Shown here piece after piece: positions 2,542 through 26,754 of a stretch of 64,000 nt of DNA (the first letter of the stretch is position 1; each line of letters begins with the position of its first letter). This stretch comes from Candidatus Woesearchaeota archaeon. Lineage in GTDB: Archaea; Nanobdellota; Nanobdellia; Woesearchaeales; GW2011-AR9. The notes beneath the pieces are model-generated. The model made no database searches and was not told the origin of the DNA. It saw nothing but the letters and a program-made list of their open reading frames with translations. The stretch spans positions 1,081,733 through 1,145,732 of the forward strand of contig JBAYIU010000001.1 of the NCBI GenBank assembly GCA_041665465.1. Reading direction: 5' to 3'. Position numbers and translations under genes: made by a program.

Positions 2542-3138
2542 ATGTCTCTTGAACAACTCAAACAACAGTATCACGATTGCAAGAAATGTTCTGAATTGTG
2601 TAAATCTCGGTCGCAAGTAGTGTTCGGATCAGGAAATCATAATTCTAAGATTCTTTTCATCGGAGAAGCTCCCGGTGCTACTGAAGATAAGCAAGGTATT
2701 CCTTTTTGCGGGATGTCTGGAAAAATTCTTTCTGAATTGTTGGCACATATCGGAGTAACTCGAGATGAAGTCTTCATTACTAATACTATTCTTTGTCATC
2801 CTCAAGATAATCGGAATCCGGCCAAAGAGGAAGTACAAAACTGCCGAGAAAGGTTAGATAAAATGATTGAGATCATGCAGCCAAAAGTGATTGTAACTAT
2901 CGGCAATTTTGCTACGGAAAGAATTCTGAACAAAACGGGGATAACTACTTTGCGTGGAAAGGTTTATCCTACTATTATTAATAATAAGGAAGTTAAGGTA
3001 GTTCCAGTAATTCATCCGGCGGGTTATTTATATTCTGGCAGGAATCCAGAGATGTTGAAGCAGATGAAAGCTGACTTTGAAGCCATTGCTAAAGTGATTG
3101 ATGATAAGAAACAGCAGAAGAGTTTAGTAGAGTTTTAA
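2542..3138 (+). CDS. udg: Uracil-DNA glycosylase, family 4 (Fe-S type)
   Basis: Motifs CKKCSELC and GEAPGATED...PFCGMSG, plus HPQDNRNP. Length is typical at 198 aa. Confidence 0.75.
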   Translation: MSLEQLKQQYHDCKKCSELCKSRSQVVFGSGNHNSKILFIGEAPGATEDKQGIPFCGMSGKILSELLAHIGVTRDEVFITNTILCHPQDNRNPAKEEVQNCRERLDKMIEIMQPKVIVTIGNFATERILNKTGITTLRGKVYPTIINNKEVKVVPVIHPAGYLYSGRNPEMLKQMKADFEAIAKVIDDKKQQKSLVEF

Positions 3139-6975: not shown

Positions 6976-7950
6976 CTAATCAAACCATTCTGGAAAGAAA
7001 TCTAACTTCTTTTCTTCTACAATAATCACTGATTCGGTTTTCTTAATCAGTTCTGGGAAATCGTTTCTGATCTTATGGGTTAGTCCATAAAAGTCTTGTA
7101 ATGTTTCCGTCTCTATTTCCAATTCCATTTCCCACGGCCCGAGAGATTCGATAACATGAATCACATTAGGAAGTTCCATGCAGTAGTTAATAAATCGGTC
7201 AATCTCGTGTTCATAATTCTTCAAATAAAGACATAATTTGAAAAAATTGTATCCTATCTTTTGTGGATCAATAAACGTCACATAACCTTGAATAACTCCT
7301 TTCTTCTCTAGGTCTTTGATTCTACGTTGAGCAGTTTTAATATTCATTTTAAACTCTTTGACTAAGTCCATATAATTGAAGCGAGCGTAATTGGAGATAA
7401 ACCTCATGATAGACTTCTCTTCTTCAGATAAATCTACTTTGTCTTCATTCATAAACTTCTTAACTTTCTTTAGAACTGCTCCTTTTTTATTAATTAAATA
7501 TGTTCTGGGAGAAGTATGTCCTTCTGATAAAAACACTATATCATAATTGGTAATAAATCTTTCAAACTTGTTAAAGAAGTCTTTCTTCACAGAAGTAAAC
7601 TGATTCATGTTCTCTACATACGCACCAATCATCAAGTCCCAGCTTCCTTCACACTTGGCTACCCAAGAGATTCTTTGATCTTTCTGTAGGTAAGCATAAA
7701 ACTCTTTCTCTTCTTCTGGCGTGAATCCGGAAAGTTGGAAGTAAATCTTTCCTAAAAATAGTCCTAATCTGGCTAGTGAGGGTTGAACTACAAACTTCTT
7801 GATGACTCCTTCTTTAAGGAGTTGATTAACGTGATATTGGACATTATTCTTTCCAATACCTAACTTTTGTCCAATCTTAGAGAAACTCTCTCTAGCATTG
7901 GTGTCTAACTCTAATAAGATCTTGCGGTCAATCTTGTCTAATTTGGGCAT
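6976..7950 (-). CDS. Lrp/AsnC-family transcriptional regulator, tandem two-domain form
   Basis: Two repeats of an HTH_AsnC plus RAM-like unit (DRKILLELDTNARESFSKIGQKLGI; ...IMRFISNYARFNYMDLVKEF). 324 aa. Confidence 0.7.
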   Translation of the reverse strand: MPKLDKIDRKILLELDTNARESFSKIGQKLGIGKNNVQYHVNQLLKEGVIKKFVVQPSLARLGLFLGKIYFQLSGFTPEEEKEFYAYLQKDQRISWVAKCEGSWDLMIGAYVENMNQFTSVKKDFFNKFERFITNYDIVFLSEGHTSPRTYLINKKGAVLKKVKKFMNEDKVDLSEEEKSIMRFISNYARFNYMDLVKEFKMNIKTAQRRIKDLEKKGVIQGYVTFIDPQKIGYNFFKLCLYLKNYEHEIDRFINYCMELPNVIHVIESLGPWEMELEIETETLQDFYGLTHKIRNDFPELIKKTESVIIVEEKKLDFFPEWFD

Positions 7951-9029: not shown

Positions 9030-9443
9030 TCAATATAAGGTATGCTTCTCACTTTGATTCTCTTTCTCTTGCAAATTCTTTCTATCCATCCATTGAAGAT
9101 ATTTTCTTAATGATGATCTGAAATCCAACAGGACCATTCCGGCATTAAACTCGGAAATATGGCCTGGTTTTCCTCTGAGGATATCTTCAATGGTAAAATG
9201 ATGAAGAGTATACGATGTCATTGAACCAAAAAGTAAAGGGGCAGTTAAGTTAGGACAATCCTCTTCAGCTTGCTTCCTCTGGAAGTAAGTTCCGTGAACG
9301 CAAGAACTGTGATCAAAATAGTCGTGCTCTTTAACAACGTAAATCTCTATTTCTGGATAATTCTTTAAGGTTTCGCTTCCCACATATATTGATAAGATTT
9401 TTTCCGTTAGATCTTTAGTTAATTGCATTTTAGTTTCCTCCAA
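9030..9443 (-). CDS. Hypothetical protein, last gene of the HD-hydrolase operon
   Basis: 137-aa ORF overlapping the HD gene end by 14 nt. GC is higher than the backbone. Confidence 0.4.
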   Translation of the reverse strand: MEETKMQLTKDLTEKILSIYVGSETLKNYPEIEIYVVKEHDYFDHSSCVHGTYFQRKQAEEDCPNLTAPLLFGSMTSYTLHHFTIEDILRGKPGHISEFNAGMVLLDFRSSLRKYLQWMDRKNLQEKENQSEKHTLY

Positions 9444-9963
9444 ACATGTTTTTGTAATGTTCGTAGTATTGTCCTAATTCGAAAGCCATGGCTGGACATA
9501 CTTTTTCTGCAAGGGGCAGATAAAATTGCTCACATTCCTCTAAGTAACGTTTTGCTCCTTGAAGAGAAAGAGCTTCTAAGCTGGTCATGTTGTGCAATCT
9601 ATCCGCTAGCTTAACCCTCTGCACCCAAATCGGTGCTTCCAACAATCGGTTCTTGTACTGCTCTCGGTCAACGTTCCGGGTCAATAAATACACTCCTTGA
9701 GCTACGCTTTCCCCAAACACGGACTTTATTTGGTCTAAAGTAAGTGCAGTATCTTCAACCGTATCATGTAGCCAAGCTGTAGCTAGGGCAGTTTCTTCTT
9801 GAACACCATATCTGCGAAGCAATTCCGCGACTGCTGCCGGATGAGTCACATATGGAGAACCATCCTTTTTTCTAAACTGTCCTGCATGATACCTTTCAGC
9901 GTATAATCTAGCGATATCTTCGGATCCCATTTTTACTTTCCTCAATTTGATGGTATGTTTCAA
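9430..9963 (-). CDS. HD-domain (p)ppGpp hydrolase-like protein (RelA/SpoT-type small alarmone hydrolase)
   Basis: HAGQFRKKDGSPYVTHP...WLHDTVEDT...VKLADRLHNM is the RSH hydrolase signature. About 165-177 aa and single-domain. The true start may be the internal Met at MGSEDI. Confidence 0.75.
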   Translation of the reverse strand: MKHTIKLRKVKMGSEDIARLYAERYHAGQFRKKDGSPYVTHPAAVAELLRRYGVQEETALATAWLHDTVEDTALTLDQIKSVFGESVAQGVYLLTRNVDREQYKNRLLEAPIWVQRVKLADRLHNMTSLEALSLQGAKRYLEECEQFYLPLAEKVCPAMAFELGQYYEHYKNMFGGN

Positions 9964-10302: not shown

Positions 10303-11163
10303 ATGGAAAAGAAACTCACCGCTCAAGGACCTAAAGATCGTAAGTCTTATACTGTAACTCTGCCCATAGAATGGGTCAAGTCTCAGCATCTTGACAAGAC
10401 GAAAATCATTATGATGAAAGTGGTGGGTAGTCGAGTGGTTTTATCTACCAGAAAAGAAACGCTTGAACATGAAGTGATTGATGGTGAAGCACATTCTAAT
10501 TCTCTGATTAAAGTGTTGCAGGGGTTATATCGACTCGGGGTAAATGAGATCAAGATCACTTACAAGAATCCCAAGGTCATCACTGCTGTTTCTCAGATTG
10601 TTAATGAAAAATTAATCGGCTACGAAGTCATGGAGCAAAAACCCAATTATTTAATCTTGCAAGATATTACTAGAGAATCTAGTGAAGATTTTGAGGTTAT
10701 CTTAAGAAGAATCTTTCTTCTGATGATGGAATTAATGAATTGCCAAGAAGAAACCCAAACCAACAGTTTGTTCAACAATATGAAAAAGTTGATTAACTAT
10801 TGTCAGAGAATTCTAGCCAAGTGGGGATCTTCCGATTTTCTTAAGACTCCTTTCTATTACGTTTTGCTTGATCATCTGGAAAAATTAGGTGATGAGTATT
10901 CTTGGATCAATTCTCTTAAGATCAAAGATAAAAATGACCTAGTTACTCTAAAAGAAATCAATCTCTGTGCTAGAAAAGCTTACGAATTATTTTACAAGTT
11001 TGATGCTTCAGAATATGATCATTATGAACATCAAACCTATTTAATCAAACATAGAATAACCTCTTCCGGACATTTAACTGTCTTCGATCTGCACTTGCAT
11101 AATCTAGCCAGAGTTTTGAATACCATTTATGGGGACATTTTTGTGTTAGGGTTTAAGAAGTAA
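10303..11163 (+). CDS. AbrB/SpoVT-N-terminal, PhoU-like C-terminal regulator (paralog 1 of 4)
   Basis: N-terminus KSYTVTLPIEWVKSQHLDKTKIIMMKV is a swapped-hairpin AbrB-like domain. The C-terminus is helical and PhoU-like. Same architecture as 20560-21489, 24940-25860 and 52515-53432. Confidence 0.65.
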   Translation: MEKKLTAQGPKDRKSYTVTLPIEWVKSQHLDKTKIIMMKVVGSRVVLSTRKETLEHEVIDGEAHSNSLIKVLQGLYRLGVNEIKITYKNPKVITAVSQIVNEKLIGYEVMEQKPNYLILQDITRESSEDFEVILRRIFLLMMELMNCQEETQTNSLFNNMKKLINYCQRILAKWGSSDFLKTPFYYVLLDHLEKLGDEYSWINSLKIKDKNDLVTLKEINLCARKAYELFYKFDASEYDHYEHQTYLIKHRITSSGHLTVFDLHLHNLARVLNTIYGDIFVLGFKK

Positions 11164-11170
11164 CTTATTC

Positions 11171-12181
11171 TTACTCCCAACAGATCTTTGGGAAATAAGT
11201 ATAATAATGTTCTTCATACCCCATCAGGATCTCATAATCTTTTAACTCTGGAGAAAAATGTTCTTTTAATTCAATCATGGTTTGATAGAACTCTTCGGTT
11301 CTTTTCACACAAAGATAGATGATCACATTAAACTTTCCAATGGTCTTGCTAGCCCAAATCACATTTTTATTAAACTTTAAGAAAGAACCTAGCTGTTGAT
11401 CTTTTTTTTCATCTAAGTTATGCAAATCTAGCAATAGGAAATATACTGTATATCCGATGTTAGAATAACTAATAATAGGAGAAAACTTTTGGATTATCCC
11501 TGCTTCTTGCATCCTCTTTATGCGATAACTAATGGTATCAGAAGATGTTCTGGTCATTTCTGCTAGTTTAAACAGGGGAATGGTGGCATTAAGAGATAAT
11601 TGTTTTAACACCAGTAAGTCTGTTTTATCTAAACTCCCTTCTTGTGTCTTCTTCTTTACATTGAGGTTCTCCTCCTTAAGATGAAGAAAGCTTCTTGGTA
11701 CTGCCTTATTAATATAATTCTTGGATATAATCAAGAGTTCATATTCTTTAAGATAGGAAGAAAGGTCTTTGATAATTTTGTTCACGACTAGATCTAATTC
11801 TGAAATATCCTTTGCAGCGATACTTACTTCAAAATTATACTTGCCAATGATTTCTATTACTGCTTTAATATAAGGGTTGGATTTAAGTAATCTAACTACG
11901 GTTGAGGTTACTTCTTTGTTTAACTGGTTCAATTGAAGAAATAAGTGATAGGTGTTATATCCTAATTTATTTAGATTCACCAAAACTAGATATCCTTGAA
12001 TTAGACCTTGTTTTTCCAGATTGTTAATTCGGTATCTTACTGAATCCTTAGACAAACCTACCTGCTTAGCAATAATAGTATTAGGAAGACGAGCATTTTC
12101 AGAGAGAAGAGCAAGAATCTTTTTGTCTTTTAAGTCAATCTTTATCTCTTTTTCCGAAATTATTCTTTGATTGAATCGCAT
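11171..12181 (-). CDS. Lrp/AsnC-family transcriptional regulator, tandem two-domain form
   Basis: Two HTH_AsnC units (DKKILALLSENARLPNTIIAKQVGLSKDSV...; DLLVLKQLSLNATIPLFKLAEMTRTSSDTISYRIKRM). 336 aa. Confidence 0.7.
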   Translation of the reverse strand: MRFNQRIISEKEIKIDLKDKKILALLSENARLPNTIIAKQVGLSKDSVRYRINNLEKQGLIQGYLVLVNLNKLGYNTYHLFLQLNQLNKEVTSTVVRLLKSNPYIKAVIEIIGKYNFEVSIAAKDISELDLVVNKIIKDLSSYLKEYELLIISKNYINKAVPRSFLHLKEENLNVKKKTQEGSLDKTDLLVLKQLSLNATIPLFKLAEMTRTSSDTISYRIKRMQEAGIIQKFSPIISYSNIGYTVYFLLLDLHNLDEKKDQQLGSFLKFNKNVIWASKTIGKFNVIIYLCVKRTEEFYQTMIELKEHFSPELKDYEILMGYEEHYYTYFPKICWE

Positions 12182-12190
12182 CTATTATTA

Positions 12191-12230
12191 TCTTAAAACT
12201 TATTTTCTATTTAAATATTGCGTTTTAAGA
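12191..12230. promoter_or_regulatory. 9-bp inverted repeat (TCTTAAAAC ... GTTTTAAGA) bracketing a TATA-like element, between the Lrp gene and the radical SAM operon
   Basis: Arms at 12191-12199 and 12222-12230 with a 22-nt AT-rich spacer (tattttctatttaaatattgc). Confidence 0.45.
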
Positions 12231-12278
12231 TTAAAAAACAGTTAGAAGTTTCTTCATTGCCTTTTAATTTATGTCTCT

Positions 12279-13361
12279 GTGATCTTGATGGAAGATAAAC
12301 TAAATACCTCTTTGGTGGCGGGATGGTCGTTTACTAAACGTTGTAATTTACGTTGTATTCACTGCTATGGTTCTTCTGGATGTAGAGCACCAGACGAATT
12401 AACTTTAGAAGAAGCCTTAAATGTGGCTGATAAACTTAAGACTTCTTGTGTAGAAGCAGTAAATTTTGGTGGAGGGGAATGTTGTCTTAGGGAAGATTTT
12501 ATTCCTTTATGTGAACGCTTACACTCTTTGGGTATAAAGATATCTTATACCACCAATGGAACTACCCTAAACAGAATCAGATCCCATCTATATTTATTTA
12601 ACGATGTGGGGGTTAGCTTAGATTTTCCGGATGCAGAAAGGCACGATTATTTTCGAGGAGGAAAAGGCATCTTTGCTAAAGCAGTGTCATCGTTACAAGA
12701 ATTAGTTGAAAGGGGGGTTGATACGGAGATAGTTACTTGTTTAACCAAGATGAATTGCTCTGAGAAAGATCTTTCTGATATGTATCAATTAGCCAAAGAG
12801 GTAGGAGTAGATTATTGGAGATTAAATCGTTTCAGAGCTAATGGTAGAGGGAAAGAGAATCAGAGTACACTTTCACTAACTCCAGAAGACCTCAGGAAAG
12901 CTTATACTTTTCTTTCTCAGTATGTGGATAATTCAGTTTCTGTTCCTGAACCAATCTATCGGGCTGCTTTTGGGGGTAAGTATACTTTTCCTGGAGATCC
13001 TTCAGGATATACTGCTTTTAGAATTCAACCTAATGGAGAAGTAAGTCCTTCAGTGTTCTTGACTGAAAGCGGAGGTAACATCAAGTATAATTCTCTCTCC
13101 GAGATTCTCGGTTCTCCTATCTTTAGATCAATCCGAGAAAGAAATCCGCAAGGAAAGTGTCAATCCTGTTCTGCTTACTCTCACTGTAAAGGAGGAGATG
13201 CAGGAGCTTCTTACTTAGAATATGGACATTTCAATGGTCCTGATCCTCTTTGTTGGCTTAGTGATAATGACATTAGGGGAATTGTTCAGCAGGAAATAAG
13301 TGAGACTTGGAACGTTCATGAGCGTTACCTTTGCACTCTTTATGTTCCTGTAAGAAAATAA
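12279..13361 (+). CDS. Radical SAM protein with a Cys-rich C-terminal auxiliary-cluster (SPASM/twitch-like) region
   Basis: CNLRCIHC (CxxxCxxC) motif, the GGGEC SAM-binding motif, and C-terminal GKCQSCSAYSHCKGGDAG...DPLCW. Confidence 0.75.
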   Translation: MILMEDKLNTSLVAGWSFTKRCNLRCIHCYGSSGCRAPDELTLEEALNVADKLKTSCVEAVNFGGGECCLREDFIPLCERLHSLGIKISYTTNGTTLNRIRSHLYLFNDVGVSLDFPDAERHDYFRGGKGIFAKAVSSLQELVERGVDTEIVTCLTKMNCSEKDLSDMYQLAKEVGVDYWRLNRFRANGRGKENQSTLSLTPEDLRKAYTFLSQYVDNSVSVPEPIYRAAFGGKYTFPGDPSGYTAFRIQPNGEVSPSVFLTESGGNIKYNSLSEILGSPIFRSIRERNPQGKCQSCSAYSHCKGGDAGASYLEYGHFNGPDPLCWLSDNDIRGIVQQEISETWNVHERYLCTLYVPVRK

Positions 13362-13374
13362 TGGAGGTATAACT

Positions 13375-14373
13375 ATGGTCGAACATCAAAAATTGCCGAA
13401 ACTAGACTTGAACATTACTAATCGATGTAATCTACGTTGTAAACATTGTGCTTTCGATTCTGGAGTAGAACAAATGTCAGAAATGAGTTTAGAAAAGATC
13501 TTGGAGGTCTTGCACCAAACCAGAGAATTAGGTGGATCTAAAGTGGATATTACTGGAGGAGAACCAACTCTACGAGATGATTACCTGAAGATTATTAAAG
13601 GTGCTAAAGAGATGGGGTATCAAGTAGAATTAGTCACTAACTCTCTGCGGTTAGATCATTCTACTTTAAAGACACTTCATTCATTAGATCTAGACAGTTT
13701 AGCGGTTAGCTTAGATGGATATACTTGGCAAACGCATGGTTTAATTCGTAATACCTCCTCAGAAGAGTTTGAGAAAGTAGTTAGAAATATTTCTGATGCA
13801 GTTAATTTGGGAATAAAAACCAAGATTAACACTTTAGCTTGTCAAGAAAATATGGAAGAGATTCCTCGGATTATTCAACTGGGAGAAGAGAAAGGAGTGA
13901 AAGAGGTAGGATTATATTATTTCACTCCCGTGGGAAGAGGAGCTCACCAGAATTTGCATTCTGTGGAACCTCTTACTTGGTTAAGATTTGTCCGAGAGAG
14001 ACTGGATCGAGAGTATACTCTTAAAGTTTCTTTAGAGATACCTTTGATTGAGAAAGAATTATACTCCCCTAAAATGGGGTGTATTTGGGATGTTGATCCT
14101 TTCCATCTTCAGATCTTACCCGAAGGAAAAACTTATCCTTGCGCCATCATGGCGTCTTATCATCTCCCTATTGGTAATTTGTATCATCAGAACATTAGTG
14201 AAATCTGGAAAGATGAATCTGTCTGGAGCAGGTATCATTCTCAGTTAGAAGGACACTTTAATAGGAACAAGGGGGGTTGTGTAGCTTTCCGAGACTTCGA
14301 TCTAAAAGATTATCCAGGATATTCTTTTGTTTGTCCATTAAGAAAATATTCTCCGCAAGAGGTGAGAAGATGA
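13375..14373 (+). CDS. Radical SAM protein, second of the tandem pair, with a C-terminal Cys-rich region
   Basis: CNLRCKHC, GGEPTLR, C-terminal YPCAIMASY...GGCVAF...FVCP. Good RBS-like GGAGG upstream. Confidence 0.75.
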   Translation: MVEHQKLPKLDLNITNRCNLRCKHCAFDSGVEQMSEMSLEKILEVLHQTRELGGSKVDITGGEPTLRDDYLKIIKGAKEMGYQVELVTNSLRLDHSTLKTLHSLDLDSLAVSLDGYTWQTHGLIRNTSSEEFEKVVRNISDAVNLGIKTKINTLACQENMEEIPRIIQLGEEKGVKEVGLYYFTPVGRGAHQNLHSVEPLTWLRFVRERLDREYTLKVSLEIPLIEKELYSPKMGCIWDVDPFHLQILPEGKTYPCAIMASYHLPIGNLYHQNISEIWKDESVWSRYHSQLEGHFNRNKGGCVAFRDFDLKDYPGYSFVCPLRKYSPQEVRR

Positions 14374-14945
14374 GCAACTTATTTGTGGTCGGTGAGGGAG
14401 TGGATAAGGGAGGAAAAACCAGCGTCTTAAAGTACGTGTGCAACCAGCTAACCAAAGAAGGGGCTGATGCTGTTTATCGCAAAGGGATTAAAGGGGACGG
14501 TTACTTGGCTAAACTTTCTTCCGTTTATCCTTCTACACCTACTTTCTTGTTGGAGCAGATGGAGCAGAATATTAACTTATATCTCCGAACAGGGATAGTT
14601 TTACAAGATCGGTGGTATTATTCGGTTGTTTCTTATCCTGAAAATGGAGTTGGTTCTGATATAATCAGTAAGGTGGTCACTCCTTTTCTAAGAGAGCCGG
14701 ACTTACTTCTTTATTTCACTTGTTCTTTGGAGGAGAGATTAAGAAGATTAGAACAAGAACCAACCCGAGAACATCTGGATCTAATTAATCATCCAGAGAA
14801 GATTGAAGAATGGGAAAACAAGTTGTTAGAACATTATGTTCAATTCTCTGGAACTAAATATTTAATTGATACGACCTACAGAAGGGTGGAAGAAAGCGGA
14901 GAAGAGGTGTTGGATTTGATTAAACTTGGATTAAGTCGCTCCTAA
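14370..14945 (+). CDS. Thymidylate-kinase-like P-loop nucleotide kinase, translationally coupled to the radical SAM gene
   Basis: The ATG overlaps the upstream TGA as ATGA. P-loop VVGEGVDKGGKTS; DRWYYSVVSY matches the Tmk DRY..S..AYQ region; lid-like PDLLLYF...RLRRL. Confidence 0.6.
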   Translation: MSNLFVVGEGVDKGGKTSVLKYVCNQLTKEGADAVYRKGIKGDGYLAKLSSVYPSTPTFLLEQMEQNINLYLRTGIVLQDRWYYSVVSYPENGVGSDIISKVVTPFLREPDLLLYFTCSLEERLRRLEQEPTREHLDLINHPEKIEEWENKLLEHYVQFSGTKYLIDTTYRRVEESGEEVLDLIKLGLSRS

Positions 14946-18736: not shown

Positions 18737-20575
18737 ATGGGATTAGCTGATAGATTCATAGAAGCAAGAGAAGCTTTTGAACTGGCTTATGATAGAGTTG
18801 CTAATGACCATTCTCGCTCATTACTGGATCCTCTGGTTCTTCCAGAGGTAGAACAATACTTGCCTGTACTTGCCGAAGCGGTTCGTGAAGCAAGTCTTCT
18901 TTCTCCACTTGAGATAGGAGAACTCATTTTTCATCCTAAAAAGGCTCAACGAGGTATGGGTACTGCAGAATGTCTTCTATTTGATTATCAGCTTGCTGCT
19001 GAAGGGTTTGGTTTGGCCAATGTAGAAAGAACATTGGGAGAATTTGCAGAATTAAGTGACTTCATGAGTTTAGTTATTGCGAAATTATCTACTTCTCCTG
19101 ATCTTCCTGCTGTTGAGAGAATATCTCTTATTGGTGGTTCAAAAAGAATAAAGTTGGTTCAAGGGACATCTGAAGTCAAAGGTGACAGTGCTGCTCAGAC
19201 CTATCTTGCTCGGGAAAGAGAAGCTCACTGTTTAGTCTTTCAAGGAGATGCCCCTCAACAAGTTCACAATGAAGTTACTGATTTACTTCTAGCTAGATTT
19301 GGTCCTCATAGTCCTTACTTTAAGAAAACAGGTAGATACATCCGGCCATATCATGTTGATGCTAAATCTGGTTTGGCAACCATTGCTCAACTTGATTCTG
19401 TTCCTGAGGTTCATAATATTGGTAATTTATCTGTAGCCCCTGCCTACTTTAGGGTAGGGGGAATGTTTATTGATTATCAAGATCTAGATGTGGTGATTGG
19501 TGAGCTTAAATCCTTTGGGTATAGTGTTAGTCCAGGTAGTTCTAATTCCTCTCTTACTGATCGTTTATTATCCGCAGGAGTACCTGAACCATTGGTTGAA
19601 CCATTAATCCAAAGTGTTAATGCCCAGATCGATCGACTAGATCATATCGTTACGGATACTATGACTGGGATTATGGGTCATGGTTGCGTAGGAAGATACG
19701 TTTCTTCAGAAGGAACGTATTGGTTTAAGATAGATACTAATTATTCTGCAGCGTATAAGTCTTCTCAGATTCCTGCGTTAATTCATGCTCGAGCAGAAGC
19801 AGGTAGTGAATTAGCCCAAGCCCTAGCTAGAAGAATTCCTTGCACTTTATCTGGTCTTCCGATTCAAGTAGGAGATTATCATGTTACTTTTTCTCGAGAT
19901 GCGAACGAAATGATGGTTCAGCCAGATTTAGTAGAAAGATCTATCCTGTCTGTAGAATTAGGGAGAGGAATAGGTCCCGAGATGCTTCAAAGGATTTATA
20001 CTACTGCATTATATCATGAAGTTTCTACTGATCTTAGTAAGGATAATCCTGATCCTTTGTTAAGCTCGGAAATTTTCCCCACCAATTTAGATCGGGAACA
20101 ATTGATAGCTCGTTTTAATGGAAGATTTACAGATTTTTCTTCTTTATTCAACAGAACTATTGATGGGGGCTATGAAGAAGGACGTGCTAGGTTATTAGAA
20201 CATCAACTTTCTGGGTCAATTCAAGGTATCTATGACAACAAACCTGAGAACTATGTGGGGGCTTGTTGTGTTGATCTTGGAATATCCAAACAAGGGGACG
20301 AAGTAGATGATTTAGCTAGATTGATGTTAGGAAAGGAAGAATTTGTGAAAAATCCCATTCTCTTAAATAATTATGTTGGTGCTTATATCAGAATTCGTCA
20401 AGGAATTCAGAAGAAATATCGTGGAGAAGCAACGTATCATCCTAGTGAAGAATTGTCTGAATTAGTTAGTCTACAATTACAATATGGTACTTGGAGAATG
20501 ATGGGATGGAGTGTAGTAAGGGGAGATGAAGAAGGATTAACTAAATATTTGCGATGTGCTCAAGAGTTTGTCTGA
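18737..20575 (+). CDS. Large hypothetical protein (612 aa)
   Basis: Long ORF with consistent coding potential and elevated GC (about 42%). No motif recognised. Confidence 0.5.
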   Translation: MGLADRFIEAREAFELAYDRVANDHSRSLLDPLVLPEVEQYLPVLAEAVREASLLSPLEIGELIFHPKKAQRGMGTAECLLFDYQLAAEGFGLANVERTLGEFAELSDFMSLVIAKLSTSPDLPAVERISLIGGSKRIKLVQGTSEVKGDSAAQTYLAREREAHCLVFQGDAPQQVHNEVTDLLLARFGPHSPYFKKTGRYIRPYHVDAKSGLATIAQLDSVPEVHNIGNLSVAPAYFRVGGMFIDYQDLDVVIGELKSFGYSVSPGSSNSSLTDRLLSAGVPEPLVEPLIQSVNAQIDRLDHIVTDTMTGIMGHGCVGRYVSSEGTYWFKIDTNYSAAYKSSQIPALIHARAEAGSELAQALARRIPCTLSGLPIQVGDYHVTFSRDANEMMVQPDLVERSILSVELGRGIGPEMLQRIYTTALYHEVSTDLSKDNPDPLLSSEIFPTNLDREQLIARFNGRFTDFSSLFNRTIDGGYEEGRARLLEHQLSGSIQGIYDNKPENYVGACCVDLGISKQGDEVDDLARLMLGKEEFVKNPILLNNYVGAYIRIRQGIQKKYRGEATYHPSEELSELVSLQLQYGTWRMMGWSVVRGDEEGLTKYLRCAQEFV

Positions 20576-21489
20576 GAAAAGTTTATTGCAAATAATGGCA
20601 CAGTAGTAAGATAAATCGTTCGAGCTAACTCTCCACAATAATATAAAATTAGGTTTTCTTCCCCTTTTGATTTTTTAAGAAGAAGAAATATTTCCCCATA
20701 AAGGAGATGTTTATTATTGTCATTTACTTGTTCTATTATCTTAAGATCTTTCTTTGAAAAACCTTCATATAGTAGTTCAAAACTGGCTTTAATCTCGGTA
20801 AATAATTTCAAGGTGCTGTTAGAAAAAACTGGCTTATTCTTTCCTTGCATTACTTCGTAAAGATGCAATAAACTATGTTGTGTTAGCAACAATCGTGTGT
20901 ATAATTCCCAGTAGGAGTTTATTCTCTCTTCTACAAATCTTCTTTTGGAGATATTTCTATTGCAAAAGTTAGAGTAACGATCAACATTTTTACTATTTTG
21001 TATTAAATGAGACAAATGAGAAAAATCCTTGTTCTTAAAATCGTTTTCTAATTGCTCAAAAGAGTTCTTAATAATTAGAAAGATTCGGCGCAGAAGTACT
21101 TCTTGCTTCTCCTCACTTGGTTCAGTTACGTTTTCCAAGATTAAGTAATTGGGGCTTTCTTCCACAATTTCAAACCCTAACAATCTTGCTTCTACTGTGT
21201 TCTTAATCAAATTTTTCTGTTTAGGGATGTTAAAAAATACTTTTATTCGGTCAAAGCCAGTACGATAAAGGACATTCAGATTACTGCGAATAATCTGTTC
21301 ACTTTCAGTAGATATCTTTAGGACAGAACTCTTCTTCTCACCTTTTGATTCGGTGCTGATGATAACTTTATTTTCTATTTCTTCTATATCTACTTCTTTT
21401 CCTGCCTTCAATCCGTTGAGTTTGGTCCATTTAGCGGGAAGAGTTAAAGTTAAAGCGTTATCCCCCTGCTTGATCAGTTTTCTACGCAT
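20560..21489 (-). CDS. AbrB-N/PhoU-like regulator (paralog 2 of 4)
   Basis: MRRKLIKQGDNALTLTLPAKWTKLNGLKAGKEVDIE at the N-terminus. Aligns with the other three paralogs. Confidence 0.65.
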   Translation of the reverse strand: MRRKLIKQGDNALTLTLPAKWTKLNGLKAGKEVDIEEIENKVIISTESKGEKKSSVLKISTESEQIIRSNLNVLYRTGFDRIKVFFNIPKQKNLIKNTVEARLLGFEIVEESPNYLILENVTEPSEEKQEVLLRRIFLIIKNSFEQLENDFKNKDFSHLSHLIQNSKNVDRYSNFCNRNISKRRFVEERINSYWELYTRLLLTQHSLLHLYEVMQGKNKPVFSNSTLKLFTEIKASFELLYEGFSKKDLKIIEQVNDNNKHLLYGEIFLLLKKSKGEENLILYYCGELARTIYLTTVPLFAINFSQTNS

Positions 21490-21894: not shown

Positions 21895-22656
21895 ATGTTG
21901 AAAAATGGGGTTAATCTTGTCTGGAGAATAAAAATGAATCATCAATCAAATTTAGGATTAACTGCTTTGGTTGCTGGAGCTCTGGCTTTAATGAGTGCTT
22001 GTAATTCTGGAGTATCTAAAGAGGAAGAAAATAGATTATTACAACTAGAGAGACAAAAGCAAGTAGAAATACAAGAAGAGATGGCTAAACCTCTCTGTCC
22101 GGAAATACCTCTTTACTTAGCAAGAGAAAGCTCTCGATATGGGGCATTAGCAAAAGAATTTATCTTGACGTGTAATGATGTTGGTGGCCAGGGGGATTAT
22201 GGTCTTTTTGTTGAAGTAAAGAAAAATCTTTACAAAAATATGGAACAACAGAGGAAAGCTACCATTAAAGATTTGGTCTCTAAAGGAGTTATGTCTGAGA
22301 ATGGTACACTAAAATGTAGGTTTCCACAACCCGATTTGAATCAGTTAAGATCTGCCTATGATTCACTTTTTGAGAAAGAAGTAACTCCTATTTGGAGATG
22401 TCATACCAATAAAGGAAATATTCCAATGTGTGATTACATTGGATGTGCTGTTTTTACTGACAAGTATGGGGAAGAAAACTTTCAAAGAGGGAAATTTTGT
22501 AGTCCCACTGAAGCTGTAAGGGTGGAAAAAGATCAAATTGAAAGATATCTAATGCAAGAGAAAGGGGCTTGTCAACATGTGGATTATAATTATTTTGATC
22601 CGATCAGTGGGCAATGGTTCAATACTAAAACTGGAGTGATGAGGGACAAAAAATGA
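21895..22656 (+). CDS. Putative lipoprotein, Cys-rich
   Basis: Signal peptide ending in the lipobox-like LMSAC (likely start at the Met of MNHQSNLG at 21934). Several conserved Cys. Confidence 0.45.
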   Translation: MLKNGVNLVWRIKMNHQSNLGLTALVAGALALMSACNSGVSKEEENRLLQLERQKQVEIQEEMAKPLCPEIPLYLARESSRYGALAKEFILTCNDVGGQGDYGLFVEVKKNLYKNMEQQRKATIKDLVSKGVMSENGTLKCRFPQPDLNQLRSAYDSLFEKEVTPIWRCHTNKGNIPMCDYIGCAVFTDKYGEENFQRGKFCSPTEAVRVEKDQIERYLMQEKGACQHVDYNYFDPISGQWFNTKTGVMRDKK

Positions 22657-23150
22657 AACTATCTTATCTTATCTTAGCTTTGGGTTTAGCTACAGCTGGT
22701 GCTTGTACCTCTGAACAAGACAGAGCTAATCAAACTCGTTATAAAGCAGAAATTATTGCTTTATATGATCAACTAGAAGAGAAAGTTGCTAAAGCTCAGA
22801 ATCAATTAGCAATTGGCTCTATCGATCCTCTAAACAATGAGTATAAAGTGATTGAATGTTACAGAGTTTGGAGAGATTATCACTTTTCTACTAAGGAGGC
22901 CGGAGAACACAATTGGAAATATTGTTTATCTATCACTGAAGATGGAAAATATGATTGGGGGGCTTGTATTGATGACGCGGTGAATGAAATCTCTGAATCT
23001 AATCTTGATCCAAATCTATTGAAGGTTGGGGTGAAAAGTTCCTTTGAGAAACATTGTCGAGAACAAATAACCCTAGCTGATGAATTCATCTATTGTGCTG
23101 ATCATCTTAAACCTGAACCAGGTGTTGAAATTGAGGTAAATGAAATATGA
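22653..23150 (+). CDS. Putative lipoprotein
   Basis: MKLSYLILALGLATAGAC, a signal peptide with lipobox. Confidence 0.5.
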   Translation: MKLSYLILALGLATAGACTSEQDRANQTRYKAEIIALYDQLEEKVAKAQNQLAIGSIDPLNNEYKVIECYRVWRDYHFSTKEAGEHNWKYCLSITEDGKYDWGACIDDAVNEISESNLDPNLLKVGVKSSFEKHCREQITLADEFIYCADHLKPEPGVEIEVNEI

Positions 23151-24103
23151 TAAATGATAATTTAGAGATAATTGTAGAAAGAAGAGAAATTCGTCCAGAA
23201 AGAGATATTGTTGTCAAACAACTTGGGGTAGATTTCATAGATCAAGGAATCAATCGCGGATTTTTCGGATGGATAAGAGCTCGGATTGATCACTATTTAG
23301 ATTCAGAGAGTCGAACCTTAGCAGTTAGGAAGGAAGAATTCTTCCGAGATTATGCTACTACCTACACTACTTTATTTGGAAATGGGAATGATTGGGATTC
23401 TCTTCGAAGTATGGATCAAACTAAGATTGATGATACTCCTCAAGCAAGTTCCTTTTCTGGTTTAAGTCAGAAACATCGTGATGCGATTATTATTGATAAG
23501 ATAGTTAACGTCCTGGAAACCACCGAAGATCAGTTTGTGGCTGGATTATTCCGTGGATATTTGAGTCATGACTTAATGTGTTCAGATGCAGTTCATCAAT
23601 TGATTATGGGGTACGAACCGGGACAAGAATTCTCTTGGAGATCTAAACCTCGTCGTGAGATTACTCTTCATCAAGAAGGGGAATATTCCGAAAAGGTCAT
23701 CTGCAGATCAGAAGAAACGAAACGATTAACTCGAGATTATCCTATTGAAGATACTTTCGGAGAAGCTAGAGAGTATTTTGCTACTTGTAACAGAGCCATG
23801 GAACTCGCTCGACATTATCTCCGTTCTCCTGCTCAATGTACTGAAGCGGAAATGGGCGTTCTTGCTCCTTTCGCGGCTATCGCTGCTCGTGATGGAGAAT
23901 GGCGCGGTATTGAGTTAGAATGGAATGGCACAATTCTCGATTTCCAACAACATTTAGATGGAAATATGTTGGGAAGATTAGGTGAGGGAATCAAGAGATT
24001 ACAAGAAGCAAATATCGTTGACCTTCAGTATCATCAGGACAAAGTATATCTCTTGCCCACTGAAGGATTCATCCAATTGACTAGAGAGAGGTTGGGAAGA
24101 TAA
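23147..24103 (+). CDS. Hypothetical protein (318 aa)
   Basis: GC-rich (about 48-50%) ORF with no recognised motif. Translationally coupled on both sides. Confidence 0.5.
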   Translation: MINDNLEIIVERREIRPERDIVVKQLGVDFIDQGINRGFFGWIRARIDHYLDSESRTLAVRKEEFFRDYATTYTTLFGNGNDWDSLRSMDQTKIDDTPQASSFSGLSQKHRDAIIIDKIVNVLETTEDQFVAGLFRGYLSHDLMCSDAVHQLIMGYEPGQEFSWRSKPRREITLHQEGEYSEKVICRSEETKRLTRDYPIEDTFGEAREYFATCNRAMELARHYLRSPAQCTEAEMGVLAPFAAIAARDGEWRGIELEWNGTILDFQQHLDGNMLGRLGEGIKRLQEANIVDLQYHQDKVYLLPTEGFIQLTRERLGR

Positions 24104-24105
24104 GA

Positions 24106-24918
24106 ATGAAAAATCCAATAAATCTACTAAGGGGTTTAACTCAATCAGAAGAATTAAAATGGCAGGAAGCTTATGGTTTAATCTTAGCACGGGCGGAGGA
24201 GAAGACCAACCTTAAAGCATTAAGAACTGGAATTTATCGAGATCTTCAAGCACAAAAAATTCCTCCCAATGTCACAATGTCAACAAGAAGACATCCGGTA
24301 GACTATCTCTTACAGGCGCGTCTAGTCTTAGGCTCATGGCCGGATGCATTTTTATCCTATCTTTCTCCTAGTACTTGGACCTCTAGTGGTGGATCTTTTA
24401 AACTGGCAGAAGAGAGACTGGGTTACGATTTAGTAAACATTCTGCTGGAAAAAGAGAAAAAGCAAGGTCAATCCTCTATATTAGAAGTGGGTGCGGGATA
24501 TGCCGGATTTAAATCACAACCTGCTCAAGGGATGTGTAAATTATCTCACGTAGCGAATGACAAAATGGGCAATACCATTAATGCTTATTTCACTAACCTT
24601 TCTAGATGGCATGAACAACTCCCGAATGGAGTAGAAGAATTTCCCGGTGTTACTGCTAGTACCTTAGATTGTCTAAGCGGAAGAATATCTCCCTTAGATA
24701 TTATTTATTCTCAATGGGGAGCTTTTTATGATCCTCTAATTGATCGATTCATTCCTAGTGCGAGTGGTTTATTGAAATCAGATGGTTTGTTAATTTTTAA
24801 TCATTCTACTTTCTATGAGGGAGAGATCTTAAATGAAGCCAAAAAAAATCTTCTTTCCTTAGAAAAGAAAGTAGAGCTTCATCCTGGGAATAATATCTAT
24901 GCTTTTCGTAAAGCCTAA
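24106..24918 (+). CDS. Putative class I SAM-dependent methyltransferase
   Basis: ILEVGAGYAGF resembles motif I (E/D-x-G-x-G-x-G) in a Rossmann-like context. Weak evidence. Confidence 0.4.
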   Translation: MKNPINLLRGLTQSEELKWQEAYGLILARAEEKTNLKALRTGIYRDLQAQKIPPNVTMSTRRHPVDYLLQARLVLGSWPDAFLSYLSPSTWTSSGGSFKLAEERLGYDLVNILLEKEKKQGQSSILEVGAGYAGFKSQPAQGMCKLSHVANDKMGNTINAYFTNLSRWHEQLPNGVEEFPGVTASTLDCLSGRISPLDIIYSQWGAFYDPLIDRFIPSASGLLKSDGLLIFNHSTFYEGEILNEAKKNLLSLEKKVELHPGNNIYAFRKA

Positions 24919-24939
24919 ATAAACTTAATTTGTTACTTT

Positions 24940-25860
24940 TTATTTTTCTTCTTCTAGCATCTTTAATTGTAATAAAGAATGATTAAACATGGCAATAGTT
25001 CTAGCCACTTCAAATAGATAACACATCGCTAGTGGATTTAGCCCTTGTAATTTGTTTATTCGTTGATTAGTTATCTTTTCCATCTCATTTGCAAGGATGC
25101 CCGTTCTTTCTAATTCTGCAGGATTGTTTGCTTTAAAATAAGCTAGATACATCTGATCAAACATTTTGGTAAATTCTTCCATAAACGGAAGAATCTTCTG
25201 TTTTTGGTTTTTGGGGAGGTTAATGGTTGCTTGAACTAAACTAAACAGTTCTCTTTGGATTACGTAACAATCGCGATACTCCTGCCATTTAAATGGACTA
25301 TTCTTTAAGGGGTAATTAGAATAATTACTTCTAAGAATTGAATCACACTGAACCATACTCTTATTCAGGTTTGCAATACTTTTGAGGTTTTTAGAATCTT
25401 TTTTAAGCAGTTCTATCACTTCCAAAAATGTTTCTTTAACCAGATGAAAAGATCTTTTTTCTACAGTATTTATCTCGCTAGGGAAAGGGATTAAATTAGC
25501 TAGAATACAACAATTATTCTTTGTTTCTCTGATCTCATACCCATAAACATAATTATCTACCACTTCTCGAATATTTTTGAGGAATTGATCCTTTTCTTTC
25601 TCTTTAAAGAACAAGGTAAAACGGTCGCAACCCAAACGAATCAGAGAAAACATAATTCCTCGGATATTTCCAATATCTGAGTATTCTAGAGTTACACTGC
25701 GTTCTTTAGCTGGTCTTTTGTAATCTTCTGCTTGAATAATCAGCTGATTTTGTTCTTCTTCAATCTTAACTTCTTTACTCCCCAGCTTATTGCGGTCTAC
25801 CCAGTATTTAGGTACTGTCAGCAAATAAGAACCTTTATTGAAGACTAATTTTCTATGCAT
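24940..25860 (-). CDS. AbrB-N/PhoU-like regulator (paralog 3 of 4)
   Basis: MHRKLVFNKGSYLLTVPKYWVDRNKLGSKEVKIEEE at the N-terminus. Same architecture as the other paralogs. Confidence 0.65.
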   Translation of the reverse strand: MHRKLVFNKGSYLLTVPKYWVDRNKLGSKEVKIEEEQNQLIIQAEDYKRPAKERSVTLEYSDIGNIRGIMFSLIRLGCDRFTLFFKEKEKDQFLKNIREVVDNYVYGYEIRETKNNCCILANLIPFPSEINTVEKRSFHLVKETFLEVIELLKKDSKNLKSIANLNKSMVQCDSILRSNYSNYPLKNSPFKWQEYRDCYVIQRELFSLVQATINLPKNQKQKILPFMEEFTKMFDQMYLAYFKANNPAELERTGILANEMEKITNQRINKLQGLNPLAMCYLFEVARTIAMFNHSLLQLKMLEEEK

Positions 25861-25883
25861 TCTTTCTTTAATCTTAAGTTTCT

Positions 25884-25917
25884 ATATAAACCTTCCCTAG
25901 GGAAGATAGGGGAGAAG
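25884..25917 (+). promoter_or_regulatory. TATA-like element (TATATAAA) followed by the motif CCCTAGGGAAGATAGGGGAGAAG, which recurs at 27755-27777
   Basis: A near-identical motif, CCCTAGGGAAACTAGGGGGGAG, lies upstream of the 27850 gene. Both sit 50-100 nt before a + strand start. Confidence 0.45.
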
Positions 25918-25947
25918 TCTATAACAATTTTATTGTTTTAATCTCTC

Positions 25948-26754
25948 TTGGTGGTAGTGGGGGTTTTAAAAATGGCGTGGTTTATGAGACATAAGATACC
26001 TTATTTGGGTAAAGGAGATATACAACAGCAATATGATCATGAGAACAACCAAGTCTCTAATACTTTGTGTTATGGGGGAGTTTTTCTTAATCTTACTGGG
26101 GAAGAAAAGAATCGGGAAGAAGCAAGATGTTTTATCGGATTAGATGGTTTTTGGTTTTATGGGCACAAAGCTATAACTGCCTATCCTACTATTGATGCTG
26201 GGATAATGGTGGTTAAATATCGTGCTCTTGAAGAGGTTTCTCCTGACCAAGTAAATCATTTCTTAAAAAGAGAGTTCACTAATTGTGATGGTCCGGAGCG
26301 TGATGTTGGTTTAGAGATGGATATCTTTAAAGATCAAAGACTAGTCGTTAAACCAAAGGAAATGGCTCGTTATCATGATGAACTTAGAGAATGGCTCGAG
26401 GTATTGAATACTCATTATGCTCGACCTCATGCAGTTATGGTGGTTATGGCTATGAAACAGGAACTTCGTTCCTTGCCGGTGTTGGCTTTGGGTAATCGGT
26501 TGAATTATTCTGGACAAGAACGTGAAAAGAGAGGTGAACATGGAGCAAACCTATTCCCTCGGCCCACAGACATTCCTCTTCGAGATCGAGAGTTTGCTAA
26601 AGAATATCTTAAAGAATGCACTCCCGAAAACTATGAAGTGATTCAAGCAGCAAAAGCACATGGAATTAAAGAAGTGCGGCCGGTTCTAGACGAACTTGCT
26701 CGAGCTAAAGAGAAATTTGTGGAATCTTGGAGTTTGGACGGAAGGTTGTGGTAA
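25948..26754 (+). CDS. Hypothetical protein (268 aa)
   Basis: ORF with elevated GC. The true start may be the internal MAWFMRHK. No motif recognised. Confidence 0.45.
   Translation: MVVVGVLKMAWFMRHKIPYLGKGDIQQQYDHENNQVSNTLCYGGVFLNLTGEEKNREEARCFIGLDGFWFYGHKAITAYPTIDAGIMVVKYRALEEVSPDQVNHFLKREFTNCDGPERDVGLEMDIFKDQRLVVKPKEMARYHDELREWLEVLNTHYARPHAVMVVMAMKQELRSLPVLALGNRLNYSGQEREKRGEHGANLFPRPTDIPLRDREFAKEYLKECTPENYEVIQAAKAHGIKEVRPVLDELARAKEKFVESWSLDGRLW

Follow-up and report, generated by a model that had tools for sequence, protein, structure and literature searches.

The described systems nearest to the locus analysed here are viperin with its CMPK2-type kinase, the phage pathways for modified nucleotides, the biosynthesis of oxetanocin and albucidin, and phage thymidine hypermodification. 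The locus lies in a 64,000-nucleotide stretch from a Candidatus Woesearchaeota archaeon (GenBank assembly GCA_041665465.1, contig JBAYIU010000001.1, positions 1,081,733 to 1,145,732), referred to below as the window. It consists of two adjacent genes for radical S-adenosylmethionine (SAM) enzymes, rSAM1 and rSAM2, a gene for a P-loop kinase of the thymidylate kinase (Tmk) family, and a divergently transcribed gene for a tandem Lrp regulator. An earlier sequence-only reading had described this arrangement, and all of its sequence features were recovered. The module is a conserved unit across lineages of the DPANN archaea, which are tiny symbionts. The interpretation that we favour, at somewhat less than an even chance, is a regulated pathway in which a nucleotide is remodelled by two radical steps while a phosphohydrolase and the kinase handle the phosphates. 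No description of an rSAM1/rSAM2/kinase/Lrp module was found in the searchable literature.

In the viperin-CMPK2 pairing, a radical SAM enzyme is found beside a Tmk-family kinase. The module shares this adjacency, and the cores of its radical SAM proteins are detectably similar to viperin (RSAD2/pVip), which acts on nucleoside triphosphates (NTPs). Unlike viperin, however, neither protein has the C-terminal nucleotide-binding domain, and the module combines two radical SAM enzymes carrying SPASM/twitch clusters with HD-domain and cyclodipeptide synthase (CDPS)-like partners and a dedicated Lrp or TrmB regulator. In the pathway of phage T4, the dCTPase gp56, the dCMP hydroxymethylase gp42 and the dNMP kinase gp1 serve as NTP pyrophosphohydrolase, as modifier at the nucleoside monophosphate (NMP) level and as Tmk-related NMP kinase. 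The HD or NUDIX hydrolase, the radical SAM enzymes and the Tmk-like kinase of the module fit the same scheme, although the modifiers are radical SAM rather than ThyA-like proteins and the host is a cell (DPANN) rather than a virus.

Oxetanocin A biosynthesis likewise employs an HD phosphohydrolase (OxsA) and a radical SAM enzyme (OxsB), with chemistry on dAMP, dADP or dATP. OxsB, in contrast to the enzymes of the module, is cobalamin-dependent and without a SPASM domain. The albucidin locus contains two adjacent radical SAM genes (AlbA/AlbB) with a Tmk gene nearby (PMC7074753). Both are secondary-metabolite pathways, of Bacillus and Streptomyces, and are likened to the module by gene content, not by homology. 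In phage thymidine hypermodification, a P-loop kinase (5-HMUDK), a radical SAM isomerase and an amino acid:DNA transferase act on the nucleobase (PMC8989533), and they do so on DNA after replication. The CDPS-like gene of the module could be an amino-acid donor of a comparable kind, but neither an amino acid:DNA transferase nor 5-hmdU synthesis genes were seen with the module. The kinase matches only the thymidylate-kinase family in PHROGs, on which ground its identification as 5-HMUDK was rejected. Finally, BlsE, DesII, BtrN and MoaA share their fold and auxiliary-cluster layout with the two proteins, and the substrates of BlsE, DesII and MoaA are nucleoside- or nucleotide-linked. Sequence identity to this group is 17–23%, with no family cut-off reached; rSAM1 moreover lacks three cysteines of auxiliary cluster I (AuxI) and has an invariant C-terminal motif of its own.

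Layout and conservation of the module

The features of the module in the window are as follows.

11171-12181, minus strand: tandem Lrp/AsnC-type regulator, 336 aa, two helix-turn-helix (HTH) + RAM modules, divergent from the operon
12182-12287, between the divergent genes: control region with a TATA-like box, a second A/T box, an inverted repeat and a TTGTGAT element
12288-13361, plus strand: rSAM1, radical SAM/SPASM enzyme, 357 aa from ATG 12288
13375-14373, plus strand: rSAM2, radical SAM enzyme with a predicted single four-Cys auxiliary cluster
14370-14945, plus strand: Tmk-family P-loop kinase, 191 aa, NCBI locus tag WCV90_06330, ATGA overlap with the rSAM2 stop

The likely start of rSAM1 is ATG 12288, favoured by the NCBI gene model and by promoter spacing, with GTG 12279 as a possible alternative, and the protein is 100% identical to one in the NCBI and JGI records; residue numbers of rSAM1 given below count from GTG 12279. 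The stop codon of rSAM2 and the start codon of the kinase share the ATGA at 14370-14373, as had been read from the sequence as a sign of translational coupling. Gene spacings across the module are 97, 13, -4 and 7 nt, and a convergent gene for a Kef-type transporter ends 7 nt past the kinase, leaving no room for the open reading frame (ORF) of a precursor peptide. Together with the lack of a RiPP recognition element (RRE) domain, this agrees with the earlier view that the locus is not a classical cluster for a ribosomally synthesised and post-translationally modified peptide (RiPP). The surroundings are translation genes, with EF-2 upstream of the module and, as assigned from reading the translations, EF-1alpha-like and S10-like ORFs downstream.

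A total of 63 loci was assembled by a motif-targeted metagenome scan and contig look-ups, and features were counted after dereplication at 95% rSAM1 identity. rSAM2 directly follows rSAM1 in every dereplicated locus (38/38). The kinase comes after rSAM2 in 32 of 34, a tandem Lrp gene lies divergently upstream in 26 of 30, and a gene for an HD-domain protein of about 195 aa is located between the regulator and rSAM1 in 23 of 30. The 4-nt overlap between rSAM2 and the kinase recurs in 29 of 42 loci. Orthologs of rSAM1 (53–68% identity) occur in metagenome-assembled genomes of Woesearchaeota, Pacearchaeota, Nanoarchaeota and Aenigmatarchaeota; those of rSAM2 are 41–59% identical, and the kinase evolves faster than either. 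In a HMMER search of 1.84 billion representative sequences, the orthologs collapsed into a single cluster (473 bits). The flanking genes are not conserved between loci, and the genomic position of the module varies. Occasional neighbours include ribonucleotide reductase and NrdR-like genes, read from the translations, and an AA_kinase-family protein of UMP-kinase size. The queuosine genes QueA and QueH adjoin the module in locus L146; they were set aside as a lead since they do not recur in other loci, so that the queuosine connection comes down to L146 and to the distantly related locus L150 described below.

Two of the parts found in relatives are missing from the window: neither an HD nor a CDPS-like gene was detected anywhere in its 64 kb by tblastn and profile searches, and the window therefore carries a reduced version of the module, as do L002, L098, L139 and L147. 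The wider module with these two genes, its spread over DPANN lineages and a copy on a bacterial contig all go beyond the earlier reading. The nearest structures in the PDB to the HD family are the uncharacterised HD hydrolases 2pq7 and 3djb, followed by cyclic-nucleotide phosphodiesterases and 5dqv, which we take to be B. subtilis YpgQ. The HD domain is fused to rSAM1 once, in P0013. An HD_4 (RelA/SpoT-type) protein is encoded in the window at 9430-9963 (minus strand), 2 kb upstream of the module; it was rejected as the HD component because it belongs to a different family and the profile of the module HD proteins gives no match to it.

In eight loci, rSAM1 and rSAM2 are separated by the CDPS-like gene, which encodes a protein with a length of about 265 aa. 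This protein scores 33–34 bits against TIGR04539 (cut-off 45; E value 3e-8) and 17–19 bits against PF16715 (cut-off 27), and all eight PDB matches of the family profile at E value 0.01 or below are CDPSs (best E value 1e-7). The GxS serine, which is the nucleophile, and the KYE motif are invariant, while YxxxD/E is partly conserved. Judged by these motifs and profile matches, the protein appears to be a remote relative of the tRNA-dependent cyclodipeptide synthases.

Two further variants of the module were noted. In one marine lineage (L002, 10960-13807), the first gene after the module encodes a xylose-isomerase-like TIM barrel fused to an AAA_33 kinase (586 aa), and the next a DUF362/ferredoxin protein. 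In L135 (6967-8088), the kinase ORF is extended at its C-terminal end by about 170 aa, which include Cys and match no Pfam family.

Enzymes, regulator and control region

Both radical SAM proteins belong to the radical SAM superfamily with a SPASM/twitch extension. rSAM1 contains the motifs CNLRCIHC and NFGGGEC and rSAM2 the motifs CNLRCKHC and ITGGEP; the CX3CX2C cluster motif and the SAM-binding GGE within them are invariant in the alignments. The two score 75 and 93 bits, respectively, against Pfam Radical_SAM (PF04055), above the cut-off, and 28.5 and 28.9 bits against SPASM (PF13186; cut-off 21.5), as expected from the SPASM-like C-termini noticed earlier. They are paralogs sharing 27% identity. 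In rSAM1, the CX3CX2C motif corresponds to Cys22, Cys26 and Cys29. The AuxII cysteines are retained as CX2CX5C (C294, C297 and C303) plus C325, while three AuxI cysteines are replaced by D240, S242 and D307. Most rSAM1 members have GDPSG and GGDAG at the places where Aenigmatarchaeota-type members have GCPCG and GGCAG; three AuxI ligands have therefore been lost in most of the family. The C-terminal motif WNVHExYLCT is invariant. The rSAM2 alignment contains exactly four invariant C-terminal cysteines (C236, C256, C302 and C320), which implies a single auxiliary cluster of the twitch-like type. The proposal of Cys-rich C-termini with auxiliary clusters thus held for the presence of SPASM extensions but has to be narrowed to one cluster in rSAM2 and to an AuxI site without three of its cysteines in rSAM1.

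Neither protein reaches any NCBIfam equivalog cut-off, including those of MftC, AhbC/D, NirJ, MoaA, PqqE and viperin. Among full-length matches, rSAM1 scores highest with MftC (167 bits; cut-off 265), followed by GeoRSP (166 bits; cut-off 400). The best matches of rSAM2 are TIGR04053, archaeal MoaA, WgkB and NirJ2 (about 100–108 bits; cut-offs 325–650). PqqE yields 101 bits (cut-off 381). The match to moaA_archaeal, a GTP 3',8-cyclase family, covers the core only (107 bits; cut-off 325), and the four invariant auxiliary cysteines of rSAM2 contrast with the three-Cys cluster and open Fe site of MoaA. The model viperin_w_prok scores 58 bits on rSAM1 and 79 bits on rSAM2 (cut-off 180), and the PADLOC pVip models (68–91 bits on both) align solely to the core, residues about 12–185, which fits the earlier remark that the locus resembles a viperin-kinase pair without containing a viperin. 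Scores for rSAM1 and rSAM2 are 118 and 100 bits against AhbD (cut-off 500), 94 and 88 bits against AhbC (cut-off 650), and 135 and 100 bits against NirJ (cut-off 515). The two proteins represent two previously undefined SPASM/twitch families, in line with the suggestion of an uncharacterised modification system, perhaps directed at nucleotides; the strongly conserved neighbourhood agrees with it as well. The core of rSAM2 is as near to MoaA and viperin, both of which use NTPs, as to any family.

The AlphaFold2 models are confident, at pLDDT 90 for rSAM1 and 95 for rSAM2. Foldseek returned SkfB, BlsE, SuiB, PqqE and anSME as neighbours of rSAM1, and SkfB, SuiB, BlsE, MoaA and viperin as neighbours of rSAM2; BlsE is also the second-best PDB sequence match of both. 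The [FeFe]-hydrogenase maturases HydE and HydG were weighed as identities because DPANN hydrogenases are known, and were rejected: there was no specific match among the 25 best NCBIfam families of each protein, and HydE was a low-ranked fold match. The lipid enzymes Tes and Gms of glycerol dialkyl glycerol tetraether synthesis were also discarded, given weak similarity to the core only. A contig scan with the generic motifs [VI]NFGGGEC and CNL[KRN]CxHCY returned, among the matches listed, only distant paralogs of 27–35% identity; these are AhbD/NirJ/TIGR04053-like proteins of about 480 aa without shared context.

The kinase carries the motifs GEGVDKGGKTS and QDRWYYSVVSY. Against Pfam Thymidylate_kin it scores 40.8 bits, above the cut-off of 27, in keeping with the Tmk-like features first seen in the sequence, but its 51.6 bits against TIGR00041, the dTMP-kinase equivalog, are short of the required 83.25. 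It is therefore a Tmk-family protein for which an activity as dTMP kinase is not confirmed. Searched against the PDB, a profile of 38 family members gave significant matches to thymidylate kinases only, the best being P. falciparum TMPK (58.5 bits). Family members invariably have the P-loop, the QDR motif and lid arginines. In known Tmk structures, an Arg of the NMP-binding helix (R76 in the human enzyme, R78 in that of P. falciparum) reads O4 of thymine. In the hidden Markov model alignment, in which the register is uncertain at such divergence, the R78 position falls on a gap or a hydrophobic residue. The helix matching the one that bears R78 has the consensus FxFLLELxY, with one conserved acidic and no conserved basic residue; the kinase may thus deviate from a standard Tmk in its choice of base, as far as the alignment can be trusted.

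The regulator belongs to the Lrp/AsnC family, with two HTH_AsnC/HTH_24 modules: HTH_24 (87 bits) and HTH_AsnC (75 bits) each match two stretches above cut-off, AsnC/LrpA models give 80–88 bits, and the RAM domain is weak (20 bits; cut-off 25). Its scores against the siroheme decarboxylases AhbA and AhbB are far under the cut-offs (41 and 37 bits; cut-offs 140 and 125). DNA binding by this protein is predicted, and is consistent with the conserved control region and its inverted repeats. In the window, a perfect inverted repeat, ATCTTAAAAC (12190-12199) and GTTTTAAGAT (12222-12231), brackets the TATA-like box TATTTAAATA, which lies about 27 nt from the regulator ATG. The repeat had been taken as 9 bp long and is in fact 10 bp, while its placement around a promoter-like box stands; its chance probability, estimated with shuffled sequence, is about 0.007–0.02. 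A second A/T box is located upstream of rSAM1. The control regions of the window and 15 other loci can be aligned with invariant columns. In these 16 regions, the TATA-like box is 22–31 nt from the regulator ATG, a distance that fits a leaderless regulator mRNA, and is followed by a TTTCGG-AAAA spacer and the second box CTTTCTTATAT. The element TTGTGAT occurs about 25 nt past the second box, near the first operon gene, and several other loci have inverted repeats of their own around the first box. Judging from this organization, the region would comprise two promoters placed back to back, and operator sites that serve autoregulation. An Rfam search of the whole window gave no match, and thus no known riboswitch.

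The window encodes two other regulators. A second tandem Lrp/AsnC protein (6976-7950, minus strand; 324 aa, two HTH + RAM modules) shares 23% identity over its full length with the module regulator, and the fused architecture is therefore that of a recurring paralog family in this genome. A TrmB-like regulator (62807-63520, plus strand; 73 bits) is related to the TrmB proteins that replace Lrp beside the module in other lineages.

Distant relatives, proposed pathway and rival explanations

Intermediate rSAM1-like relatives with 34–45% identity keep the C-terminal motif. In L149, such a protein is encoded among a GT2 glycosyltransferase, a Tmk-like kinase, a second SPASM radical SAM enzyme, a methyltransferase and a NUDIX protein. 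In L150 (2139-13005), a large cluster surrounds an rSAM1-like protein of 39% identity and includes a Tmk-like kinase, a protein with a faint nucleoside deoxyribosyltransferase-like match, a methyltransferase, archaeosine-type genes (a RaSEA-like radical SAM protein and an ArcS domain), a purine-deaminase-like amidohydrolase, a B12-dependent radical SAM protein, a MutT-like NUDIX protein and a queuosine-precursor transporter (TIGR00697, 169 bits; cut-off 51). This cluster looks like an undescribed pathway for a 7-deazaguanine nucleoside. In P0256, an rSAM1-like domain is fused to a second radical SAM domain, which suggests that the two enzymes act together, and the gene adjoins two GT1/GT4-type glycosyltransferases. 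In L152 and L153, a radical SAM pair accompanies a GLF-domain protein (UDP-galactopyranose mutase family), two glycosyltransferases and a nucleoside diphosphate (NDP)-sugar epimerase/dehydratase. Directly upstream of this distant pair and its glycan cluster (L152, 3702-6820; L153, 273-3391) are three NADAR-domain genes, a Macro domain and a PP2C phosphatase, which represent ADP-ribose-related functions.

The module also has a bacterial counterpart. In L144 and L145, the HD-rSAM1 fusion, whose rSAM1 domain is 65% identical to that of the window, lies on a contig with EF-P, DnaN, HU and FtsH, which is bacterial and probably similar to the Candidate Phyla Radiation (CPR). In L144 (4360-6958; GCA_964450195.1), the fusion is accompanied by a variant rSAM2 and a divergent TrmB gene, with no kinase. 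The bacterial markers on this contig point to cross-domain transfer between DPANN archaea and a CPR-like bacterium.

For the proposed nucleotide pathway, we infer the following substrate class, order of steps, direction of the kinase reaction and ligand control of the regulator. The HD phosphohydrolase, or a NUDIX protein in distant relatives, would trim an NTP, a dNTP or a related nucleotide to the substrate form. rSAM1 and rSAM2 would each split SAM to generate a 5'-deoxyadenosyl radical and would perform two radical steps in succession, probably oxidative, on the sugar or the base, while their auxiliary Fe-S clusters would move electrons. The Tmk-like kinase, co-translated with rSAM2, might then turn the product NMP into an NDP for return to the nucleotide pool, according to the logic of T4 gp56/gp42/gp1; alternatively, it might supply the substrate to the radical SAM enzymes, as in the viperin-CMPK2 pair. 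The tandem Lrp protein would bind around its own TATA box and control both divergent promoters through a small ligand. The window would hold a reduced version of this pathway, lacking the HD gene.

We favour the nucleotide pathway because the recurring partners, the Tmk-like kinase and the HD or NUDIX hydrolase, handle nucleotide phosphates, and because the distant rSAM1-like relatives in L149 and L150 are again found beside Tmk-like kinases and NUDIX proteins. It is further supported by the conservation of the module and its control region together with the frequent rSAM2/kinase overlap, by the exclusive match of the kinase family to thymidylate kinases in the PDB and PHROGs, by the nearness of the rSAM2 core to NTP-using MoaA and viperin, by the relationship of the HD family to cyclic-nucleotide phosphodiesterases and 5dqv and its fusion to rSAM1, and by the occasional ribonucleotide reductase, NrdR-like, AA_kinase-family and 7-deazaguanine neighbours. 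Several observations weigh against it. SPASM enzymes act mostly on peptides, and Foldseek with both models returned the general SPASM/twitch set only, with no hint of the substrate. L001, L110 and L144 keep the radical SAM pair without the kinase, and there is no HD gene in the window, in L147 or in a small number of further loci. Some lineages replace Lrp with a TrmB-family regulator, divergently upstream in L004, L144 and L148, and TrmB-type regulators are a sugar-sensing family. The CDPS-like gene, inside the operon in its eight loci, points to aminoacyl-tRNA chemistry. Three of the distant relatives have glycosyltransferases and sugar-nucleotide enzymes as neighbours, and an NDP-sugar may therefore be the substrate instead of a plain nucleotide.

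It is on account of these glycosyltransferase surroundings that the main variant to be weighed is NDP-sugar or glycan tailoring, in which the radical SAM enzymes, like DesII and BlsE, would alter the sugar moiety of a nucleotide-activated sugar, while the kinase and the HD or NUDIX protein recycle or trim the nucleotide carrier. We regard this as rather unlikely. The glycosyltransferases of L149 and P0256, the glycan genes of L152 and L153, the TrmB regulators and the position of BlsE as a top fold match as well as second-best PDB match of both proteins all speak for it, but the true ortholog clusters, about 60 loci, contain no glycosyltransferase, nucleotidyltransferase or sugar-phosphate enzyme, and an HD protein, a kinase and modifiers suffice for a plain nucleotide. 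Co-location without shared chemistry, the kinase being a divergent housekeeping Tmk and the radical SAM enzymes modifying tRNA, rRNA or protein or maturing a cofactor, would accommodate the family assignment of the kinase and the three loci that retain the pair without it. It is nonetheless unlikely, given that the kinase is so regularly present and coupled to rSAM2, that Tmk-like kinases also accompany the distant rSAM1-like relatives, and that this kinase does not reach the dTMP-kinase equivalog cut-off and lacks a conserved basic residue in the R78 helix. The second of the two outcomes that the sequence-only reading had named as fatal to its proposal was not encountered: the radical SAM proteins reach no characterised family, and the synteny of the kinase is specific to the pair.

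Maturation of a ribosomal peptide or of a tRNA-derived cyclodipeptide, which the SPASM enzymes would cross-link or oxidise, is suggested by the MftC and GeoRSP matches of rSAM1, by SkfB, SuiB and PqqE among the fold neighbours, and by the CDPS-like gene with its Ser nucleophile, YxxxD/E and KYE. We consider it improbable because all family scores are far under the cut-offs, the CX3CX2C motif begins at residue 22 in rSAM1 and 18 in rSAM2 with no N-terminal RRE before it, a PqqD-like protein, a protease or an exporter is found in no locus, the window has no intergenic room for a precursor, and the CDPS-like gene is absent from the window and most loci; the kinase and the HD protein would also go unexplained. 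A viperin-like antiviral system would have a radical SAM enzyme making a chain-terminating NTP analogue from a substrate supplied by the Tmk-family kinase, as CMPK2 does for viperin. The adjacency of the genes, the pVip matches, viperins among the fold matches, the variable genomic position and the arrival of the module on a bacterial contig could be read in this way, but we assign it a low probability: the similarity is restricted to the radical SAM core and stays well below the viperin_w_prok cut-off, the viperin C-terminal domain is not present, there are two enzymes, both with auxiliary clusters, and the module has a regulator of metabolite type and lies among genes for translation and housekeeping, with no other defence genes nearby. 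A pathway of the alternative heme (Ahb) or heme d1 (NirJ) type, with the tandem Lrp as fused AhbA/B and the radical SAM proteins as AhbC and AhbD, can be given hardly any weight. The gene order resembles ahbAB-ahbC-ahbD, weak matches exist (AhbA/B at 41/37 bits, AhbC/D/NirJ at 88–135 bits) and one JGI homolog is automatically annotated as Fe-coproporphyrin synthase. All these scores, however, are far under the cut-offs (140/125 and 500–650), the regulator matches true AsnC/LrpA models better and HTH models strongly, inverted repeats occur in the conserved control region, such a pathway would have no place for the kinase, HD and CDPS-like genes, and DPANN archaea, to our knowledge, are generally without siroheme synthesis.

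A bolder reading, which we hold to be doubtful, is that the module serves DPANN archaea, and at least one bacterium of CPR-like type, in producing a non-canonical (deoxy)nucleotide by radical SAM chemistry on the monophosphate, or in rewriting host-derived modified nucleotides such as 7-deazaguanine derivatives into usable ones. If this were true, the non-canonical nucleotide could serve the symbionts' own DNA or RNA, and the module would be a cellular, non-viral counterpart of the phage modified-nucleotide pathways and a trait that ultra-small symbionts share across both domains. The genomes of DPANN archaea are very small, and these organisms are believed to rely on hosts for nucleotides; many of their lineages nonetheless retain two costly Fe-S radical enzymes together with a dedicated kinase and a dedicated regulator, and rSAM1 keeps 55–68% identity from one lineage to another. 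Identification of the substrate would assign a function to two new radical SAM families, would show how the symbionts use nucleotides (salvage, modification or signalling), and might reveal an unknown nucleoside in DPANN DNA or RNA. The module is compact and thus practical for expression and in vitro work.

Other genes of the window

Several further ORFs of the window were noted. A protein encoded at 10303-11163 (plus strand; about 290–310 aa) has no Pfam match, and one of similar length at 20560-21489 (minus strand) has an AbrB/MazE-type (SpoVT) N-terminal domain; neither is kept beside the module in other loci. Directly after the S10-like gene, a 612-aa ORF (18737-20575, plus strand) gives no Pfam match, nor does any in a run of five or six ORFs at 21895-26754. 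Near the beginning of the window, a protein of the uracil-DNA glycosylase superfamily is encoded at 2542-3138 (plus strand; 121 bits).

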